This document shows, piece after piece, positions 3,698-59,841 of a DNA stretch of 64,000 nucleotides. The position numbers and the translations under genes were made by a program. Each line of letters starts with the position of its first letter. Within the stretch, counting starts at the first letter, position 1. This DNA comes from Lucifera butyrica. GTDB lineage: Bacteria > Bacillota > Negativicutes > Sporomusales > UPPP01. Under the pieces are notes generated by a model. The model made no database searches and was not told the origin of the DNA. It saw only the letters and a program-made list of their open reading frames with translations. Location: positions 8,651-72,650 of the forward strand of contig NZ_UPPP01000062.1 in the NCBI RefSeq assembly GCF_900476375.1, given 5' to 3'.

Positions 3698-6019
3698 ATG
3701 TCTAAACATCGTCGCAAAATACCGCTATTGCCGCTTCGGGGCATTTTAGTTTTTCCATATATGATCATCCATTTGGATGTGGGACGCGAAAAATCAATCA
3801 GCGCATTAGAAGAAGCAATGGTTCATGACCGTCTTATCATGCTGGCGACACAAAAGGAAGCTCAAAATGACAAGCCCGAACCGGAAGATATTTTCCCGGT
3901 CGGTACGGTCGCTGAAATCAAACAATTGTTAAAACTTCCCGGCGGAACAATCCGGGTGCTGGTGGAAGGATTACACCGGGCTTCGATTGAAGAGTATGTC
4001 AGTCAGGAGCTGTTTTATCTGGTTGAAATTAACGAATTTGATGAGCTGGAGCCCAAAACGCCGGAACTGGAGGCCCTGACGCGGACATCGATTCATCAGT
4101 TCGAGCAATGGGTGAAATTAAGCAAAAAAATTCCGCCGGAAACTCTGGTTTCGGTGGTGGTCGTGGAAGAACCCGGCCGGCTGTCGGATTTAATTGCCAG
4201 TCACTTGTCGCTCAAAATTGAAGATAAGCAGGCCCTGCTGGAAGCTGTTAACATTAAAGAGCGGCTGGAAAAATTATGCGAAATTCTTAGCCGGGAAATG
4301 GAAATTCTGGAACTGGAAAAGAAGATTAATGTCCGGGTTCGCAAGCAGATGGAAAAAACGCAAAAGGAATATTATTTGCGGGAACAACTGAAAGCCATTC
4401 AGAAAGAATTGGGCGATAAGGACGACCGGACCAGTGAAGTGGAAGAATACCGGCAGCGTCTAAGCGAACAGGAATTACCCAAAGAAGTGGCTGAAAAAAT
4501 AAATAAAGAAATTGAGCGCCTGGAAAAAATGCCGCCCATGGTGGCCGAAGGAGCGGTTATCCGTACATACCTTGACTGGCTCCTGGCATTGCCCTGGTCG
4601 CAGGAAACGCCCGACCGGCTGGATATTTCCATGGCGGAGACAATTCTGGAAGAAGATCATTACGGGCTGGAAAAGGTTAAAGAACGGATTCTGGAATATC
4701 TGTCCATACGGAAGCTGACGGAAAAAATGAAGGGCCCCATTCTTTGTCTGGTCGGACCGCCGGGAGTTGGTAAAACATCCCTCGCCCGCTCCATTGCACG
4801 GGCTATGGAACGCAAGTTTGTCCGGGTTTCCCTGGGCGGTGTGCGTGATGAAGCGGAAATTCGGGGTCACCGCCGCACTTACGTAGGCGCGCTGCCGGGA
4901 AGGATCATCCAGGGGATGCGCACTGTAGGCTCTAAAAATCCGGTTTTTCTTCTCGATGAAATTGATAAAATGAACGCTGACTTCCGGGGAGATCCGTCGT
5001 CGGCTTTGCTGGAAGTTCTCGATCCGGAACAAAATAATTCGTTCAGCGATCACTACGTGGAATTGCCTTTTGATCTTTCCCGCGTTTTGTGGGTAGTTAC
5101 GGCCAATGTAATGCATAACATTCCCCGGCCGTTGCTTGACCGCATGGAGACAATTACCATCGCCGGCTATACGGAAGAAGAAAAGGTACAGATTGCCAAA
5201 CGTTATTTAGTGCCGAAGCAGATGAAAGACCATGGTCTTTCGGAACAGCAAATTGTTTTTTCCGAAGGAACGATTCAGAAAGTAATCCGGGACTATACCC
5301 GGGAAGCCGGAGTGCGGAACCTGGAGCGGAATATTGCCAACTTATGCCGCAAAGTAGCCCGGCAAATTGTGCAAGAACGCCGGAAAAGCGTTAAAATTAC
5401 GGCGCAAAATCTGCATACTTTTTTGGGTGCGCCCAAATACCGCCATTCCCAGGCGGAAAAGCAGCACCAGGTAGGAGTTGCCACCGGCCTGGCCTGGACC
5501 GAAGTGGGCGGCGACGTGCTTGCCGTGGAAGTATCCACCATGAAAGGCAAAGGGAAACTTACCCTGACCGGCCAATTGGGAGAAGTCATGCGGGAGTCGG
5601 CGCAGGCCGGTTTCAGTTATATCCGGACCCGGGCCAAAGAGCTGAGTATTGACGAAGAATTTTATGAAAAAACGGATATCCATATTCATTTACCGGAAGG
5701 AGCGATTCCCAAAGACGGGCCGTCCGCCGGTATTACGATGGCCACGGCGGTAGCCTCCGCTTTAACCGGGAAGCCGGTACGCAGTGAGATTGCCATGACC
5801 GGTGAGATTACTTTGCGGGGCAGAGTATTGCCTGTGGGGGGAATCAAAGAAAAAGTGCTGGCCGCTCACCGGATTGGTATCAAGAAGATTATATTGCCCC
5901 AGGAAAATAAACGGGATTTGGATGAAATCCCCGGTAATGTGCGCCGCAGTATGGAATTTCTTTTAGTAGAACATATGGATGAAGTATTAAAAGCGGCATT
6001 GGTGCATGAGAATGACTGA
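3698..6019 (+). CDS. lon: ATP-dependent protease La (Lon)
   Basis: Lon N-domain, AAA+ module (GPPGVGKTS), and proteolytic domain with catalytic Ser ([18 protein letters not shown]). 773 aa. Confidence 0.95.
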
Positions 6020-6641
6020 AGAGAAGGCGGATTTCACGATTATTCAGGCCAAGTATTTGGCGTCGGCAGTCCGGCCGGATCAGTATCCGGCGGGGGATTG
6101 GCAGGAAATTTCTTTTATCGGCCGCTCCAATGTAGGCAAGTCCTCGCTCATTAACTCCCTTTGCCGGCATCATGGGTTAGCCCGCGTGAGCGGAACCCCC
6201 GGCAAGACGCAGACCATAAACTTTTATGTTTTAACTGCTAAATTAGCGGACGAAAAACGGCTGGACTTCTTGCTGGTCGACCTTCCCGGCTATGGATATG
6301 CCCGCACGGGTCAGGCCAACCGGCGCCAATGGTCGAGATTTATTGAAGAATATTTGCTCTATTCACCCCGGCTGCGTCTCATTTGCCAGTTGATTGATAT
6401 TCGGCACCATCCCATGGACAGTGATATTATGGTGCATCAGTGGTTAACGGAAAATAACCTGCCGGTTCAGATTATGGCTACCAAAGCGGATAAGCTGTCT
6501 CGCTCGCAAGTGAAAAAGCAGAGTACGGTCATCCGGGATGTTTTTTCCCAATCAAACAGCAATCCGATTGCTTATTCTTCTGTCCAGGGCACCGGCCGGG
6601 ACGAATTAGTTGACGCAATCAGGAAAGTTTTGCTAAAATGA
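6006..6641 (+). CDS. engB: ribosome biogenesis GTP-binding protein EngB/YsxC
   Basis: G1 motif [23 protein letters not shown]3 region, TKADK G4. Follows lon as in Bacillus. Confidence 0.9.
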
Positions 6642-12700: not shown

Positions 12701-13480
12701 ATGTTCAGACCGGTTAAAACGAGAAAAGTGTATGAGGAAATCGTAGCACAAATAAAAAAGCTGATTGTAGACGGTAAGCTGCAGCCCGGTGATAAGCTGC
12801 TTTCCGAGCGGGAACTTTCAGAACGGTTGAATGTAAGCCGCGCTTCGGTGCGGGAGGCGTTCAGCGCCCTGGAAATGATGGGAGTCATAACCATCCGTCC
12901 GGGTGAGGGAAGCTTTGTCCGGCAAGTTTCCTATGAAGGCATGCTGGAACCGTTGTCTTTTTATTTACAAATCGAGATGAACGACATTATGCAGTTATTA
13001 GAGGTGCGAAAAATTCTGGAGATCGAGACGGCAGCCCTGGCAGCAGTGCGGGCTACTGCCGAAGATATTCAGGATTTGCACCGGGCCTTGCAGCAGATGG
13101 TTGAGGAAGTCAACTCCGGCGAAATTGGCGAGATAGCGGATTCTTCTTTTCATTTTGCCGTCGCCAAAGCGGCCAACAATCCGATTCTTATCAAAATGAT
13201 GAATACTGTGGCCGATCTAATGACCAATACCTTCCGCGTATCCCGGCAACGGCTGTTTTTAGTGGAAAACATGCCCGGGTTAATTCATCATTCCCATCAG
13301 GCCATCTACGAAGCCATTGCCGCTAAAAATCCCCAGGCTGCCCGCCATAAGATGCAGGAGCATCTGACAATGGTGGAAGAGGTCATGATCCGGCTAAAGC
13401 AGGACAGGGTTTCTTCCTTAAAAGGCGGCGGAAGTATTTTTTTGCCGGCAGACAAAGAAGACCAGGTTGCTTCTTCATAA
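12701..13480 (+). CDS. GntR family transcriptional regulator (FadR/FCD subfamily)
   Basis: N-terminal winged HTH (YEEIVAQIKKLIVDGKLQPGDKLLSERELSERLNVSRASVREA) plus C-terminal FCD-like helical domain. Confidence 0.8.
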   Translation: MFRPVKTRKVYEEIVAQIKKLIVDGKLQPGDKLLSERELSERLNVSRASVREAFSALEMMGVITIRPGEGSFVRQVSYEGMLEPLSFYLQIEMNDIMQLLEVRKILEIETAALAAVRATAEDIQDLHRALQQMVEEVNSGEIGEIADSSFHFAVAKAANNPILIKMMNTVADLMTNTFRVSRQRLFLVENMPGLIHHSHQAIYEAIAAKNPQAARHKMQEHLTMVEEVMIRLKQDRVSSLKGGGSIFLPADKEDQVASS

Positions 13481-29519: not shown

Positions 29520-29595
29520 GGCCCGGTGGTGTAGTGGTTAACATGCCGCCCTGTCACGGCGGAGATCGAGGGTTCAAGTCCCTTCCGGGTCGCCA
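29520..29595 (+). tRNA. tRNA-Asp (GTC)
   Basis: Cloverleaf folded by hand: acceptor GGCCCGG/CCGGGTC, anticodon loop CTGTCAC, T-loop GTTCAAG, 3' CCA encoded. Confidence 0.85.
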
Positions 29596-29600
29596 TCGGT

Positions 29601-29675
29601 GCGGAAGTAGCTCAGTGGTAGAGCATCGCCTTGCCAAGGCGAGGGTCGCGAGTTCGAATCTCGTTTTCCGCTCCA
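29601..29675 (+). tRNA. tRNA-Gly (GCC)
   Basis: Acceptor GCGGAAG/TTTCCGC, anticodon loop TTGCCAA, T-loop TTCGAAT, CCA encoded. Confidence 0.85.
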
Positions 29676-29678
29676 AAC

Positions 29679-29754
29679 AGGGGTATAGCTCAATTGGTAG
29701 AGTAGCGGTCTCCAAAACCGTTGGTTGAGGGTTCAAGTCCTTCTGCCCCTGCCA
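29679..29754 (+). tRNA. tRNA-Trp (CCA)
   Basis: Acceptor AGGGGTA/TGCCCCT, anticodon loop CTCCAAA, T-loop GTTCAAG, CCA encoded. Confidence 0.85.
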
Positions 29755-29867
29755 GTGAAAAAACAGGGAATTCCTCAAACCGGGGAGTTTCTTTTTATTC
29801 TTTTCTAGACTATCTGGACATTTGCCAGGTAAGTTGGTATAATAATATAGTTAAGATTATTATTAAT

Positions 29868-29942
29868 GGCGACATAGCCAAGTGTTAAGGCAAAGGTCTG
29901 CAGAACCTTGATCCCCTGGTTCAAATCCGGGTGTCGCCTCCA
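29868..29942 (+). tRNA. tRNA-Cys (GCA)
   Basis: Acceptor GGCGACA/TGTCGCC, anticodon loop CTGCAGA, CCA encoded. Confidence 0.85.
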
Positions 29943-29943
29943 T

Positions 29944-30019
29944 AGGGGTATAGCTCAATTGGTAGAGTAGCGGTCTCCAAAACCGTTGGTTGAGGGTTCA
30001 AGTCCTTCTGCCCCTGCCA
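29944..30019 (+). tRNA. tRNA-Trp (CCA), second identical copy
   Basis: Identical to 29679-29754. The downstream terminator module is also duplicated. Confidence 0.85.
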
Positions 30020-37100: not shown

Positions 37101-37176
37101 GGCCCGGTGGTGTAGTGGTTAACATGCCGCCCTGTCACGGCGGAGATCGAGGGTTCAAGTCCCTTCCGGGTCGCCA
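37101..37176 (+). tRNA. tRNA-Asp (GTC)
   Basis: Identical to the copy at 29520. Confidence 0.85.
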
Positions 37177-37205
37177 TTTTACATTGAAACCTACGGCGTA
37201 CATTT

Positions 37206-37281
<76 letters not shown>

Positions 37282-37288
37282 TATATAT

Positions 37289-37363
37289 GCGGAAGTAGCT
37301 CAGTGGTAGAGCATCGCCTTGCCAAGGCGAGGGTCGCGAGTTCGAATCTCGTTTTCCGCTCCA
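37289..37363 (+). tRNA. tRNA-Gly (GCC)
   Basis: Identical to the copy at 29601. Confidence 0.85.
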
Positions 37364-37367
37364 GAAT

Positions 37368-37442
<75 letters not shown>

Positions 37443-56277: not shown

Positions 56278-56439
56278 AATATACTCCCTTCAACAGCTCA
56301 ATTACTACAATATATATTATAGTCCCTAAAAATACTTCGGGCAAAATATACCGGAAAGACCCAAAGGGCTATACATTTCGATCCCATAAAAAGAGGAAAA
56401 TTGCCGAAAGGGAATTTGTTTTGACCGCAGGGGAAATTT

Positions 56440-56580
56440 ATAGTAAAATTAAAATGCCGAATCCATATAGGTACGGGGGAACCGCTAGAAAAACAGGGGT
56501 AAATCCGCATTGCGGAGGGGTTGTTTCTCTTTTCTCTCTTTCGCCCTCACCCGACAGCTAACCTCGGAGGCACTCAAAAG
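56440..56580 (+). promoter_or_regulatory. c-di-AMP riboswitch (ydaO/kimA class)
   Basis: GCCGAAUCC...GGUACGGGGGAACC ... GGGGUAAAUCCGC...GGAGGGG ... CCCGACAGCUAACCUCGGAGGC, the pseudo-two-fold ydaO signature, directly upstream of a cell-wall 3D-domain gene (typical regulon member). Confidence 0.6.
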
Positions 56581-56593
56581 AGAGGTGATACAA

Positions 56594-57175
56594 TTGAAAA
56601 AGGTTTTTTTATTGGCGGCATGTATCTTTTTGCTGTCCATGAGCGCCACGGTTTACGCAGCTGCGGCGGACAAGCCGGTTCAATTTGGTATGCGCGGTGA
56701 TGAAGTAAAAACCATTCAGAAACTATTGGCCGATTCCGGTTTTTTTGCCGGCGAGATTGATGGTGTATTCGGCAATTTGACATTGCGGGCGGTGCAAAGG
56801 TTTCAGCAGGAGAACGGACTGCCTCCCGACGGTACCGTTGGGAAAGCTACGTTGGCCTATTTAGAGCGAACCGCCCAGACCCAACCATCCCGGTATAGCC
56901 GGGCCCTGACAATGACGGCGTCAGCCTACACGGCTCAGGATGCCGGCACCGGCGCTTTTACCTATGGAGGTCATCCCCTGCGCAAAGGCTTGATCGCGGT
57001 TGACCCGTCTGTGATCCCGCTTGGAACACGCCTTTATATTCCTGGTTATGGCTATGGAATTGCGGATGATATCGGTTCCTCCATAACCGGTGCACGGATT
57101 GATCTGGCATTTGAAAACCGCGGGGAAGCCTTGCAGTTTGGTGTCCAGAGAGTAACCGTATATGTATTGGACTAA
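56594..57175 (+). CDS. secreted peptidoglycan-binding (PG_binding_1) plus 3D-domain protein
   Basis: TTG start behind AGAGGTGA. Signal peptide. GDEVKTIQKLLADSGFFAGEIDGVFGNLTLRAVQRFQ PG-binding repeat. C-terminal 3D domain (AVDPSVIPLGTRL...DDIGSSITGARIDLAF). Confidence 0.8.
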   Translation: MKKVFLLAACIFLLSMSATVYAAAADKPVQFGMRGDEVKTIQKLLADSGFFAGEIDGVFGNLTLRAVQRFQQENGLPPDGTVGKATLAYLERTAQTQPSRYSRALTMTASAYTAQDAGTGAFTYGGHPLRKGLIAVDPSVIPLGTRLYIPGYGYGIADDIGSSITGARIDLAFENRGEALQFGVQRVTVYVLD

Positions 57176-57297: not shown

Positions 57298-57723
57298 GTG
57301 ACAACGCAAAATTCTCGGCTTACTAAACATCTTGGAGAGATTTACGACCGCAATCCGTTTGTAAAACTTCTGGACATTTCGGTGGTGAAGTTTCAAGAAG
57401 GAATGGCCGAATTGTCAATGCCAGTCATTTCCGGCAAGCATACTAATTTACATGGCTTTGCTCATGGCGGCAGCTTATTTTCCCTGGCCGATACGGCTAT
57501 GGGGGCGGCTTGTGGCAGCTTGGGAAAACGGGTGGTTACGCTTACGATGAGCATGAACTTTGTGAAAAGCGCCGGCCCCGGTGAAGTGGCGCGCAGTATC
57601 GGCAGGGTCATTCATAACGGCCGCACAACGATGGTCGTGGAGGCGGAAATTTTTGACGCTAACGAAAAACTGCTGGCAAAAGCCACGGGAACTTTCTTTG
57701 TAGTCGGCTATTTTGAACCATAA
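57298..57723 (+). CDS. PaaI-family hotdog-fold thioesterase
   Basis: HGFAHGGSLFSLADTAMGAA motif. Confidence 0.8.
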   Translation: MTTQNSRLTKHLGEIYDRNPFVKLLDISVVKFQEGMAELSMPVISGKHTNLHGFAHGGSLFSLADTAMGAACGSLGKRVVTLTMSMNFVKSAGPGEVARSIGRVIHNGRTTMVVEAEIFDANEKLLAKATGTFFVVGYFEP

Positions 57724-57823
57724 GAATACTACCCGCAGTGGTTGAGCCGGCGGGAGGCCAACAAATAATTTTCCCGCATATGGCCTGAGGCTGTGGATCC
57801 CGTTCTCCCGGACAGTGCGCCCT

Positions 57824-57985
57824 AGTGCTCTGTAAACCCTAACTCTATAGTGTTCTTGCGAGATATTTTCCGCCCTGCTTTGTTGTCGTCGGCTTACATA
57901 TTCTCGATATGCGCGCCTCCTCCGCCGTGCAGGACAAAAAATCTTTCGCAATTCATCCTACAGATTTAAGGTTAACAGAGCACTG
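57824..57985. repeat. inverted-repeat (MITE/REP-like) element, long form: arms AGTGCTCTGTAAACCCTAA / TTAAGGTTAACAGAGCACT
   Basis: Arms are near-perfect reverse complements. Related copy at 58505-58574. Confidence 0.6.
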
Positions 57986-58053
57986 GTATATAAATAGAAC
58001 GCAAGCATTATACTAGGGTTAGGCCGAAATACTGTTTAAGGGAGGGCGGGGAA

Positions 58054-58506
58054 TTGGATATGATTCCGGGTCATCTGATGCCATTAGTGCTGGCTTTGAT
58101 ATCAGGAATACTAATGGCCGTGCAGGGTACGTTTAATGCGGCATTGAGCAAGGTTATCGGTTTATTGGAGGCCACCTTTGTTGTACATATCACCGGCACG
58201 CTGCTTCTGCTGCTGGTGCTGTTTCTGCTGAAAATGGGTAAAGGCAATTTGCTTTCCTTGCCGCAGGCACCCTGGTATGCGTATTTGGGTGGTATTGTCG
58301 GTGTATTTATTATTTATCTTGTTGCTGCGAGTATTCCCACTGTAGGTGTTGCGAATGCAACAACAGCCATTATTGTGGGACAAGTATTGACTGCCCTGCT
58401 GATCGATCATTTTGGCGGATTCGGCATGGAAAAAATGGCTTTTGGTTTTAATGATTTAGCGGGTTTGGTACTCCTTACCATTGGGGCCAAATTGCTGCTG
58501 AGTTAG
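58054..58506 (+). CDS. small integral membrane protein (DUF606/YdcZ-like, DMT-superfamily half-transporter)
   Basis: 150 aa with four or five TM helices and a Gly-rich C-terminus. Confidence 0.6.
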   Translation: MDMIPGHLMPLVLALISGILMAVQGTFNAALSKVIGLLEATFVVHITGTLLLLLVLFLLKMGKGNLLSLPQAPWYAYLGGIVGVFIIYLVAASIPTVGVANATTAIIVGQVLTALLIDHFGGFGMEKMAFGFNDLAGLVLLTIGAKLLLS

Positions 58507-58574
58507 TGGTCTGTAAACCCTAATTCTATAGCCTCCCGCAATTCATCCTATAGCTTTAGAGTTTACAGACCACT
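58505..58574. repeat. inverted-repeat element, short form: arms AGTGGTCTGTAAACCCTAA / TTAGAGTTTACAGACCACT
   Basis: Starts at the stop codon of the upstream gene. Shares the arm-adjacent blocks CTATAG and CAATTCATCCTA with 57824-57985. Confidence 0.6.
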
Positions 58575-58707
58575 GGCTGCCCGGCGGCGAGGATCGTCAT
58601 TTTTTCCAAAAATGGGTTAACAAACCAGGAAGAATAAGGTATACTTAATAACATATTGTATTTATTTATTCGTTTTATGCTAAAAATCAAATATAAGGAG
58701 GAAAAGC

Positions 58708-59841
58708 ATGGATTTTAACTTTACTCCCGACCAATTAGCGCTGAAAAAAATGGCTCAGGAATTCGTTGCTAAAGAAATTACACCCTATGCCTTGGAGATG
58801 GATAAAGCAGGAGAGATCAGAGCCGGCTTATTTCAAAAATTAAATGATGCAGGTATGTTGAATTTAACCGTACCGGAAGAATATGACGGCCCCGGATTGG
58901 ATGCACTTACCATTGCGCTCATTTATGAAGAACTGGGTAAAGGTTGCGCCGGGGTGGCGACAACTACGGCAGCGAACGCATTGGCTTCCTATCCTGTTCT
59001 GGTGGCGGGGACGGAAGAACAAAAACAAAAAATGTTTTCCGTCATTAACGACGGAAAGCTGGCGGCCTTTGCGCTTACCGAACCGGGAGCGGGTTCCGAC
59101 GCCGGCGCGGTAGCCACTTCCGCTACCAAAGATGGTGATGATTATATTTTGAACGGGACGAAATGTTTTATCACCAACGGCGGTATAGCCGATATTTATG
59201 TGATCTTTGCCAATGCCAGGAAATCCGCCGGTATCCGTGGACTGACCGCTTTCCTGGTAGACCGTGGCACCCCCGGTTTTTCCTCGGGGAAAGAAGAAGA
59301 TAAAATGGGCATCCGGGCATCCAACACCTGTGAGCTGATTTTGGATAATGTCCGGGTTCCGGCTTCGCGCCGAATCGGCCGGGAAGGCGAAGGATTTAAA
59401 ATTGCCATGAAGACTCTGGATGCGGCTCGTCCCTTTGTCGGTGCCGTATCGGTCGGACTTTGCCAGGCGGCCTTTGATTTTGCCGTTAAATATTCCAAAG
59501 AACGGGAACAGTTCGGCAAACCGATTGCTTCGTTTCAATTAGTTCAGGCTATGCTGGCCGATATGGCCATGCAGATTGAAGCCGCCCGTCTTCTTGTTTA
59601 CAAAGCCTGCTGGCTGAAGGATCAGAATGTTCCTTATGGCAGGGAGTCGGCGATAGCGAAATGCTTTGCCGCCGACACGGCTATGAAAGTTACTACCGAT
59701 GCAGTGCAGGTTTTGGGCGGCTACGGGTATTCCCGCGAATATCCGGCCGAGAAGTATATGCGTGACGCTAAAATTATGCAGATTTATGAGGGAACGAACC
59801 AGATTCAGCGCTTGGTTATTGCCAACAATATTTTGTATTAA
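58708..59841 (+). CDS. acyl-CoA dehydrogenase (short-chain/butyryl-CoA type)
   Basis: ALTEPGAGSDAG and QIYEGTNQIQR motifs. 377 aa. Confidence 0.9.
   Translation: MDFNFTPDQLALKKMAQEFVAKEITPYALEMDKAGEIRAGLFQKLNDAGMLNLTVPEEYDGPGLDALTIALIYEELGKGCAGVATTTAANALASYPVLVAGTEEQKQKMFSVINDGKLAAFALTEPGAGSDAGAVATSATKDGDDYILNGTKCFITNGGIADIYVIFANARKSAGIRGLTAFLVDRGTPGFSSGKEEDKMGIRASNTCELILDNVRVPASRRIGREGEGFKIAMKTLDAARPFVGAVSVGLCQAAFDFAVKYSKEREQFGKPIASFQLVQAMLADMAMQIEAARLLVYKACWLKDQNVPYGRESAIAKCFAADTAMKVTTDAVQVLGGYGYSREYPAEKYMRDAKIMQIYEGTNQIQRLVIANNILY

Follow-up and report, generated by a model that had tools for sequence, protein, structure and literature searches.

In Lucifera butyrica (Negativicutes), a single ydcZ gene lies between two inverted repeats, and the arrangement raises a simple question: did repeats and gene arrive together as one mobile unit, did the repeats evolve in place as regulatory structures, or did they insert separately, to the left and right of a gene already in place? 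We analyzed the 64-kb stretch of DNA that holds the locus (the window) together with loci retrieved from other genomes and contigs, which are given below by L numbers. We consider it highly probable that the two repeats, element 1 and element 2, inserted independently of each other beside a resident ydcZ, and that both belong to a single family of small mobile foldbacks, non-coding and non-autonomous, of the bacterial miniature inverted-repeat transposable element (MITE) class. They are a full-length and an internally deleted copy of one dispersed family. Seen this way, the ydcZ locus itself is an ordinary syntenic gene with two repeat insertions, one in its stop codon and one at the edge of a probable deletion; the element family is the more interesting subject, since it keeps its core and its arm length and replaces its arm sequences by compensatory change.

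Two foldback elements of one family

Elements 1 and 2 are the two strongest inverted repeats in a window-wide scan, which found no further foldback of their kind, and they lie where a first-pass annotation of the DNA had placed them. Element 1 (161 nt, 57824-57984) has 27-nt arms at 57824-57850 and 57958-57984 that are 85% complementary and separated by 107 nt. Element 2 (70 nt, 58505-58574) has 27-nt arms at 58505-58531 and 58548-58574 that are 89% complementary and separated by 16 nt. The 19-nt arms of the first-pass annotation are the outer part of these longer arms, but its end point for element 1, 57985, falls one base past the last paired base. A 28-nt 5′ block (93% identity) and a 40-nt 3′ block (85% identity) are common to both elements. 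The arm motif AGTGSTCTGTAAACCCTAA, with up to three mismatches allowed, occurs in the 64 kb only as these four arms, where 0.01 occurrences would be expected by chance. On RNA folding, element 1 reaches −58.1 kcal/mol (z = −5.9 versus shuffled sequence) and element 2 −37.6 kcal/mol (z = −8.0).

Element 1 is the full-length foldback. With its flanks it occupies 57823-57985, no strand being assigned to the element as a whole, and consists of GTG...CAC (57825-57983) with TA (57823-57824) on the left and TG (57984-57985) on the right. Its minus strand is the better folder (−76.0 versus −53.5 kcal/mol for the plus strand) and has the higher covariance-model score (163.6 versus 58.5 bits). This is the R strand, defined throughout the family as the strand carrying GGCGGAGGA...GACGRCAAC, with F as its complement; in element 1 it carries GGCGGAGGA...GACGACAAC, and these strings with the hairpin between them make up an apical core at 57882-57926 on the minus strand. 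Read on the plus strand, the core comprises GTTGTCGTC (57882-57890), the small hairpin ACATATTCTCGATATG (57896-57911) and CCTCCGCC (57919-57926). Element 2, which with its flanks occupies 58504-58575 and is likewise unstranded, consists of GTGG...CCAC (58506-58573) with TA (58504-58505) on the left and TG (58574-58575) on the right. It keeps both arms and the CGCAATTCATCC block, has lost the apical core and scores 55.7 bits with the covariance model. The outermost arms of the pair are inverted and 85% complementary to each other; the ends differ in type, GTGC versus GTGG, which places the two elements in different subfamilies.

The only open reading frame (ORF) across element 1 is a spurious one of 158 aa on the minus strand, and no reading frame is conserved among family members, the frames differing between L007, L012/L027 and the Sporomusa copies. 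A small ORF behind the Shine-Dalgarno-like GGAGGA was considered and rejected: its start is not conserved (GTG, GCG, TTG, ATG) and the GACGACAAC frame differs between lineages. Rfam has no match to either element at the gathering threshold, none at E ≤ 10 across 57700-58720, and none on 12 loci holding other family members. No sigma-70 promoter or intrinsic terminator was called inside either element, and TTGACG was seen, by eye, in some family members only.

The ydcZ locus in Lucifera and its relatives

The bracketed gene was correctly recognized at the outset as DUF606/YdcZ-like: its product belongs to the DMT family and matches PF04657 (DMT_YdcZ) with E = 6e-39. The gene runs from ATG 58060 to 58506 on the plus strand, with an alternative TTG start at 58054, and its 148-aa annotated product is 100% identical to the L. 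butyrica protein P0001. A gene for a PaaI-type 4HBT thioesterase lies upstream of it and one for an acyl-CoA dehydrogenase downstream. In the loci of the closest YdcZ homologs, from an uncultured relative (L033), Anaerospora (L034-L036) and Anaeroselena agilis (L037), the gene order is AlaX (minus strand), YkuD, 3D/PG-binding protein, thioesterase, alpha/beta-hydrolase, YdcZ and acyl-CoA dehydrogenase, and the synteny around ydcZ is also kept in L038, from another uncultured relative. A profile of the element finds nothing at L033-L037. Because this order is conserved without the elements, ydcZ is, judged by its neighborhood, ancestral at this position and not cargo, and the two elements are separate insertions beside it.

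The first-pass annotation had suggested that elements and gene might form a cassette-like unit, and had proposed comparing relatives for presence or absence of the gene. That comparison speaks against the suggestion: ydcZ is present without the elements, between the same neighbors, in Anaerospora, Anaeroselena and two uncultured relatives. We therefore find it barely credible that elements 1 and 2 with ydcZ are a composite transposon or cassette that brought the gene here. The inverted, complementary outer arms would suit such a unit, as would a second pair of elements around a single DUF6036 ORF in Sporomusa acidovorans (L015), but at least four element-free relatives have ydcZ between the same neighbors, the alignment with L038 runs through the promoter block and the downstream spacer of ydcZ right to where the elements end, the elements themselves are of different subfamilies, and the arms of the L015 pair are unrelated.

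On the upstream side, the relatives have between thioesterase and ydcZ a hydrolase gene (253-262 aa) that is missing in Lucifera, and the gap is where element 1 lies. A conserved block upstream of ydcZ, GGTATATAAAT...GCATTATACTA (57985-58015, plus strand), probably the promoter region, starts exactly where element 1 ends; it aligns with positions ~84-114 of L038, directly after the hydrolase stop codon there, and a TATACTA-like box is also present at the corresponding region in L033 and L037. A weak candidate for a remnant of the hydrolase N-terminus lies at 57744-57779 on the plus strand (tblastn, 7/12 identities, EPAGGQQIIFPH versus EPAGDSVVIFCH), with an E value of 0.056 that applies to a 500-nt region and is not significant window-wide. 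A deletion of ~0.65 kb probably removed the hydrolase gene, leaving element 1 at its junction.

On the downstream side, element 2 begins at the stop codon of the gene, as had been noted: TAG (58504-58506) is made of the TA flank and the first G of the element and so overlaps its first bases. With its start inside this codon, element 2 almost certainly forms part of the 3′ end of the ydcZ transcript, and its hairpin (−30 to −38 kcal/mol) lies in the 3′ untranslated region (UTR). No U-tract follows the hairpin of either element, and the only terminator-like site, 58583-58598, is just past element 2. Element 1 lies upstream of the conserved promoter-like block, and the R strand in the window is the minus strand, antisense to ydcZ and to every neighboring gene. 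The elements may have a regulatory role at ydcZ, stabilizing or terminating its transcript as the first-pass annotation had considered, but element 2 has no U-tract and the best-folding strand is antisense to the gene. No sign of function was seen for either element at this locus, where they are probably passengers left by two insertion events, with probably one adjacent deletion.

It is highly improbable that the elements evolved locally as palindromes, terminators or mRNA stabilizers specific to the ydcZ locus, even if later co-option is conceivable. The position of element 2 at the stop codon and its hairpin of −37.6 kcal/mol in the mRNA sense fit such an origin, but no U-tract follows, the terminator-like site is outside element 2, and the element sequences recur in another genus at unrelated loci and are missing from orthologous ones. 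The dispersed copies described below contradict the simple local palindromes that the first-pass annotation had named as the refuting case.

Two missing genes set Lucifera apart from Anaerospora, Anaeroselena and two uncultured relatives: it is without the YkuD L,D-transpeptidase gene (56278-56444, between alaX and the 3D gene) and without the alpha/beta-hydrolase gene (57724-58053). A c-di-AMP (ydaO-type) riboswitch (56445-56587, 79 bits) lies upstream of the gene for the 3D/PG-binding cell-wall protein (~56510-57175), a known association. Elsewhere the window holds two tRNA clusters, at 29520-30019 (Asp-Gly-Trp-Cys-Trp) and 37101-37442 (Asp-Phe-Gly-Cys), whose content is partly repeated.

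A family dispersed in genomes and phage contigs

A scan for the arm motif in one genome per species found four loci in S. acidovorans, other matches being at chance level. The search for arms elsewhere that had been proposed at the outset was thus productive in one species, with at least five family copies and four exact-arm loci in a 5.96-Mb genome, but gave mostly chance-level matches beyond it. Element 1 is 86% identical to the S. acidovorans copies over arms and whole interior, and the 5′ block of element 2 is identical to them at 28/28 positions; the orthologous YdcZ proteins of Lucifera and Sporomusa are only ~70% identical. Further members were found in Bacillota metagenome-assembled genomes (MAGs) and in phage and prophage contigs of IMG/VR. 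A covariance model built from seven members, used with two core-pattern scans, found six more in IMG/VR contigs; the results on core and folding below cover 13 full-length members. By its own count the model detects 14 full-length members in Bacillota MAGs and IMG/VR contigs, made up of 11 from beyond the initial window sequence set and of others. The earlier description of the repeats as MITE-like and non-autonomous is thereby borne out, the same family, interior included, being dispersed in S. acidovorans and other genomes. Short forms of 48 nt (L019) and 70 nt (a Syntrophomonas MAG) also occur, and the core is missing from three copies with intact arms, element 2, L019 and L011.

For L. butyrica itself, further copies of each element are probable. 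De Bruijn graph assemblies break at multi-copy repeats, and in an independent short-read assembly of the same strain (Logan) one contig ends 31 nt into element 1 and another starts 30 nt before the end of element 2. Since the two elements have no 31-mer in common, the breaks indicate that each probably has copies elsewhere in the genome. In practical terms, the repeats break short-read assemblies of their host genomes.

At least five unrelated interiors are found in elements that terminate in the 14-nt arm TA-GTGSTCTGTWAAC: those of the Spirochaete MAG locus L010, of L039-L041 and L044 from one metagenome, of L042, of L045 and of the Sporomusaceae type. The L010 interior recurs with the same arm in the Spirochaete loci L009 and L023, where the elements were seen incomplete. 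One arm with several unrelated interiors is the usual MITE pattern. Going by the hosts of these loci, the arm motif crosses phyla. Arms of the form TA-GTGGTCTGTAAAC end foldbacks of 195-267 nt with a Spirochaete-specific interior at L009, L010, L017 and L023 (Sphaerochaeta UBA6084 and Spirochaetae HGW-4 MAGs); at L017 a truncated copy and a second arm lie on opposite sides of a 393-aa ORF. Thirteen IMG/VR matches to the arm without a partner arm nearby, several of them identical and from related contigs, look like chance and were discarded as phage copies. A candidate 4.1-kb element in L022 was also discarded, its second "arm" being a chance match inside an 861-aa ORF. A search for plasmid relatives gave no blastn match for element 1 or for a metagenome member.

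The S. acidovorans pair at L015 (NZ_CP155571.1) consists of two core-bearing elements, 5060-5220 and 6336-6493, in the same orientation and with unrelated arms, that bracket a single 208-aa ORF (5593-6219; a weak match to DUF6036 nucleotidyltransferases) just downstream of a tRNA cluster. As to whether this ORF is cargo, relatives of the neighboring mtnA are not syntenic and are uninformative for it. The S. acidovorans MtnA (L015 6840-7928) is closest, beyond a few uncultured near relatives, to Lachnospiraceae proteins (Lacrimispora, ~78% identity), and the context upstream of mtnA differs in every relative; this suggests that the region beside the element pair was horizontally acquired or rearranged.

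Some members occupy sensitive positions: one separates a glmS ribozyme from what is presumably the glmS gene, and another is next to a tmRNA gene. In a Bacillota MAG (CTSoil_071; L012 2639-2994), a full-length element lies ~45 nt downstream of a glmS ribozyme (2639-2788) and directly upstream of the next long ORF, presumably glmS, which it slightly overlaps; the element would sit in the 5′ UTR with its weaker-folding strand in the mRNA sense. In the proviral contig IMG/VR 3300014043_000185 (L080 13037-13548), close to where the contig ends, 6 nt separate an element from the 5′ end of a minus-strand tmRNA gene (13037-13388).

Insertion sites and target signature

A near-empty site is available for element 2. 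In a blastn comparison to L038, the Lucifera sequence matches as far as 58506 and then again from 58609 on, Lucifera being 65 nt longer in between; L038 reads AAGC-TA-GGCG, with CTAG at the stop codon, versus GAGT-TA-[GTGG...CCAC]-T-GGCT in Lucifera. The filled S. acidovorans site L026 reads GTAGTTTT-TA-[GTGG...CCAC]-TA-G-GCAGTGGAGGG (right flank GCAGTGG), and three relatives of this site have 7-12 unrelated nt between the same conserved flanks (12 or 7 in a close MAG and S. malonica). Among 22 elements from many sources, T precedes the terminal A-GT and A follows AC-T in ~76% each; the next bases outward are c in 14 of 21 and g in 19 of 21, a strong enrichment that gives cTA-GT...AC-TAg. TA is found on both flanks of ~12 of 21 elements and on at least one flank of nearly all, counts that, TA being palindromic, do not distinguish a flanking TA from an extension of the stem. 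A metagenome contig (JACCDV010737826.1; L043 626-965) carries a tandem pair, …CAGAGCAC-TA-GTGCTCTG…, in which two different foldback elements, the second with arms GTGCTCTGTCTCAAAAAATT, are joined as CAC-TA-GTG with one TA in common. Insertion into the TA at the junction of another copy would give just such a join. Insofar as sequence comparison can tell, insertions of the family are bounded by TA within (C/T)TAG.

IS630 is reported to prefer TA within CTAG and to duplicate the TA (Tenzen & Ohtsubo 1991, as cited in PMC2170065), and in vitro insertions of ISY100 can be flanked by TA at one end and by just one base at the opposite end (PMC2170065). Both Lucifera copies are of this ISY100-like imperfect form, TA...T. 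We propose that the two elements landed in intergenic DNA on either side of ydcZ, and that a trans-acting protein would both excise and insert members of the family at the TA of CTAG-like sites. Their target signature is, we infer, that of IS630/Tc1-type transposases. As the elements end in G...C, each insertion would recreate CTAG at both junctions, and this would explain tandem and clustered copies, the ydcZ pair included.

Several observations weigh against this proposal. No transposase was found in the window, beside any copy or in any fetched locus, and the trans-acting protein is thus hypothetical. The absence of a transposase from the window, already reported in the first-pass annotation, holds for the IS630/Tc1-type signature (YSPxLNPIE), which a regular-expression search did not find in the window or in the loci retrieved to that point; other transposase families were not screened. 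No insertion sequence (IS) with matching ends was found in any retrieved locus, and the ORFs beside the copies (PFK, DUF421, DUF6036, MtnA, RecT-like, PDDEXK, HTH and PPIase) include no transposases. Both TA and CTAG are palindromes, so the flanking bases could just as well be terminal pairs of the hairpin as a duplication. The flanks of L107 (AA...TT) and L082 (aTA...TAt) vary as inverted, not direct, repeats. A target-site duplication at the outer borders had been suggested as a check; in Lucifera, each copy is flanked by TA on its left side and by TG on its right side. Copy number looks low, with only the four exact-arm loci in S. acidovorans, and the probable further copies in L. butyrica are judged from assembly breaks. 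Moreover, cut-and-paste by a DDE transposase alone leaves unexplained a conserved core, a fixed arm length and strand-biased folding.

An invariant apical core and covarying arms

All 13 full-length members carry on one strand (C)AAGGCGGAGGA, a covarying hairpin of 6-7 bp and GACGRCAAC, the invariant strings being GGCGGAGGA and GACGRCAAC. This core lies 58 nt (54-64) from each terminus, and its predicted pairing consists of GCG/CG(A)C, tandem G.A/A.G and then GG/YY. In the hairpin between the core strings (helix 6), four of six pairs have changed on both sides. The core of element 1 occurs with quite different arms, of which there are more than seven covarying types, among them GTGGAGCGTCTACG in S. 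acidovorans L015b, GTACAGCATTGCATAG in L007, GTAAGCCTACTTGG in L082, GTACTCCATCAAGTCAG in L235, GTGGTGCATCCGGTCAG in L237 and GTCGACGCACTTGAG in L223. Paired cells amount to 90.9%, versus 76.9 ± 1.3 in column shuffles, with none of 500 shuffles reaching the observed value, and 29 of 54 pairs have changed on both sides, versus 12.8 ± 2.5 in shuffles; in control registers slid by 1-3 columns, 32-46% are paired. The apical hairpin of the Sporomusa copies, GGTGCGCATAT-CGGAAA-TATGTAAG, resembles E. coli dif (10/11, XerC arm). We regard this likeness to a dif/Xer site as coincidence because the hairpin sequence is unrelated in L007, L012, L027, L082, L107, L235 and L237.

Strand asymmetry and its possible causes

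The R strand folds better than its complement by 10-29 kcal/mol in all 13 members with RNA parameters and by 2-12 kcal/mol in all 10 members tested with DNA parameters. When the apical domain is replaced by a tetraloop, R is still better in 10 of 10, and G-U pairs number 43 on R versus 14 on F. Because the stems differ in sequence between lineages, these observations are largely independent. Other interior families with the same arms (L039, L040 and L045) are nearly strand-symmetric. Relative to flanking genes, an ORF scan places the weak strand in the sense direction in five cases and the strong strand in two, with one case ambiguous, and the ORFs beside L082 and L107 suggest two more strong-strand-sense cases; with orientation thus mixed, a function in host mRNA cannot explain the family-wide bias. 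Mutational bias was rejected as a cause, as copies lie both ways and the expected C-to-T bias favors the opposite strand.

The asymmetry points to a single-stranded working form, either single-stranded DNA (ssDNA) or RNA. Between the two we favor ssDNA during mobilization because the fold includes both termini, so that an internal promoter could not produce the folded element, and because the orientation to host genes is mixed. The step under selection would, we infer, act on a single strand. In full-length members one strand would be selected to fold as a rod whose two arms are each 58 nt long and whose invariant apical core contains tandem G.A pairs.

An RNA working form would be realized if the full-length elements were primarily structured-RNA genes or modules made from the R strand, their spread being secondary and the core a protein-binding motif of the RNA. 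Strong stem covariation around an invariant core, the one-strand G-U excess that is a classic RNA signature, an architecture fixed across lineages and the lack of conserved coding potential all suit this explanation. We nevertheless judge it unlikely: a conserved promoter or terminator is lacking and the fold takes in both termini, orientation to flanking genes is mixed and in the window R is antisense to every neighboring gene, core-less copies (element 2, L019 and L011) persist with intact arms, no Rfam family matches, and the bias holds with DNA energy parameters too.

Strand-specific folding that takes in the termini is also what hairpins processed as ssDNA might display, and the elements could be REP/REPIN-like or other ssDNA hairpins handled by an HUH enzyme (Y1, RAYT-like) or another ssDNA-specific enzyme in place of a DDE transposase. 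The GT(G/A)N ends resemble the GT(A/G)G head of REPs (PMC2817692), the L107 and L082 flanks covary as inverted repeats, and stem covariation has been reported for REPs. But the arms are not self-palindromic REP units of 20-35 nt, copy number is low, no Y1 transposase gene is flanked by copies in the loci examined, and RAYTs are described only in Proteobacteria (PMC2817692); we think this explanation quite unlikely.

Movement of the MITE-class foldbacks that we favor at ydcZ might itself involve a single strand. We put forward, tentatively and with more doubt than confidence, that Bacillota and their phages harbor in the core-bearing elements a widespread class of mobile hairpins, so far undescribed, which a dedicated protein recognizes and moves as a folded single strand. 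Such a protein would read the apical core with its G.A pairs and make its cut ~58 nt from there, where TA flanks the foot of the hairpin, and the arms would need only to pair, not to have a fixed sequence. If true, IS200/IS605-REPIN elements and integron attC sites would be joined by a third kind of single-strand mobility that depends on structure. If the kept core and arm length and the asymmetry reflect a transposition intermediate that is single-stranded, or else a conserved protein partner, Negativicutes, Clostridia and their phages would have a mobile-element mechanism that is new, and this would give a handle on the movement of orphan MITEs without a known transposase, such as Correia elements.

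Comparison with known systems

Bacterial MITEs are defined as non-coding elements of <200 bp (Delihas 2008, PMC2229807), and elements 1 and 2, at 161 and 70 nt, fall within this definition. They have terminal inverted repeats, the whole element being a foldback, and the family has dispersed copies with presence and absence at orthologous sites. Its class is that of bacterial MITEs of the Correia/RUP/ERIC kind.

Correia elements (NEMIS/CREE) of Neisseria are <200 bp and non-coding, with terminal inverted repeats containing 5′-TA-3′; they are mostly intergenic, form a long stem-loop, have no identified cognate transposase, and occur in long and short forms of 155 and 107 bp that differ in an internal segment (PMC2229807). 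The present family likewise comes in a long form of 161 nt and in short forms of 70 or 48 nt that lack an internal segment. The likeness of the arms (...GTTAACAAAA...) is loose. Correia elements differ in being high-copy and in belonging to one genus only, and no description of them includes an apical core with variable arms, a fixed arm length of 58 nt or folding biased to one strand.

RUP of Streptococcus pneumoniae and the IS630/Tc1-mariner MITEs resemble the family in insertion at TA, apparent duplication of the TA and CTAG context. RUP is tied to IS630-Spn1 by matching terminal repeats, whereas neither an IS with matching ends nor the signature of an IS630-type transposase turned up here. 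ERIC/IRU are imperfect palindromes of 127 bp, intergenic and co-transcribed with their neighbors, with orientation-dependent effects on mRNA (PMC2229807). The present elements are also intergenic imperfect palindromes of similar size, but sequence and host range differ and no apical core is known for ERIC.

REPs are palindromic units of 20-35 nt with a GT(A/G)G head and a flanked rayt gene (PMC2817692). Extragenic hairpins with compensatory changes are common to REP/REPIN and the present family, whose GTGG/GTGC/GTAC ends resemble the REP head, but the hundreds of copies and the flanked rayt gene that go with REPs were not found here. We rejected membership in the REP/REPIN-RAYT system, as the unit measures 161 nt and its arms are not palindromic in themselves, exact arms occur at only four loci in S. 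acidovorans, and no Y1 gene lies beside the copies examined. Integron attC sites are similar in being imperfect palindromes after a stop codon, with one strand as the active folded form and a variable interior. An attC assignment was rejected too: TGTTAAC/GTTAACA fit RYYYAAC/GTTRRRY at 5/7 positions in one arm type and other types have no such match, and against an integron cassette stand the lack of an integrase and of an array, the housekeeping neighbors and the synteny of the gene in relatives.

The family is apparently undescribed, having no Rfam family and no literature match to its arm sequences: they appear in no searched paper in a relevant context, and we found no paper linking Sporomusa with MITEs. 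In most bacterial MITEs the ends are kept and the interior drifts. What is new in this family is an invariant apical core, held at a fixed distance from the termini by covarying arms, and a folding bias toward the same strand.

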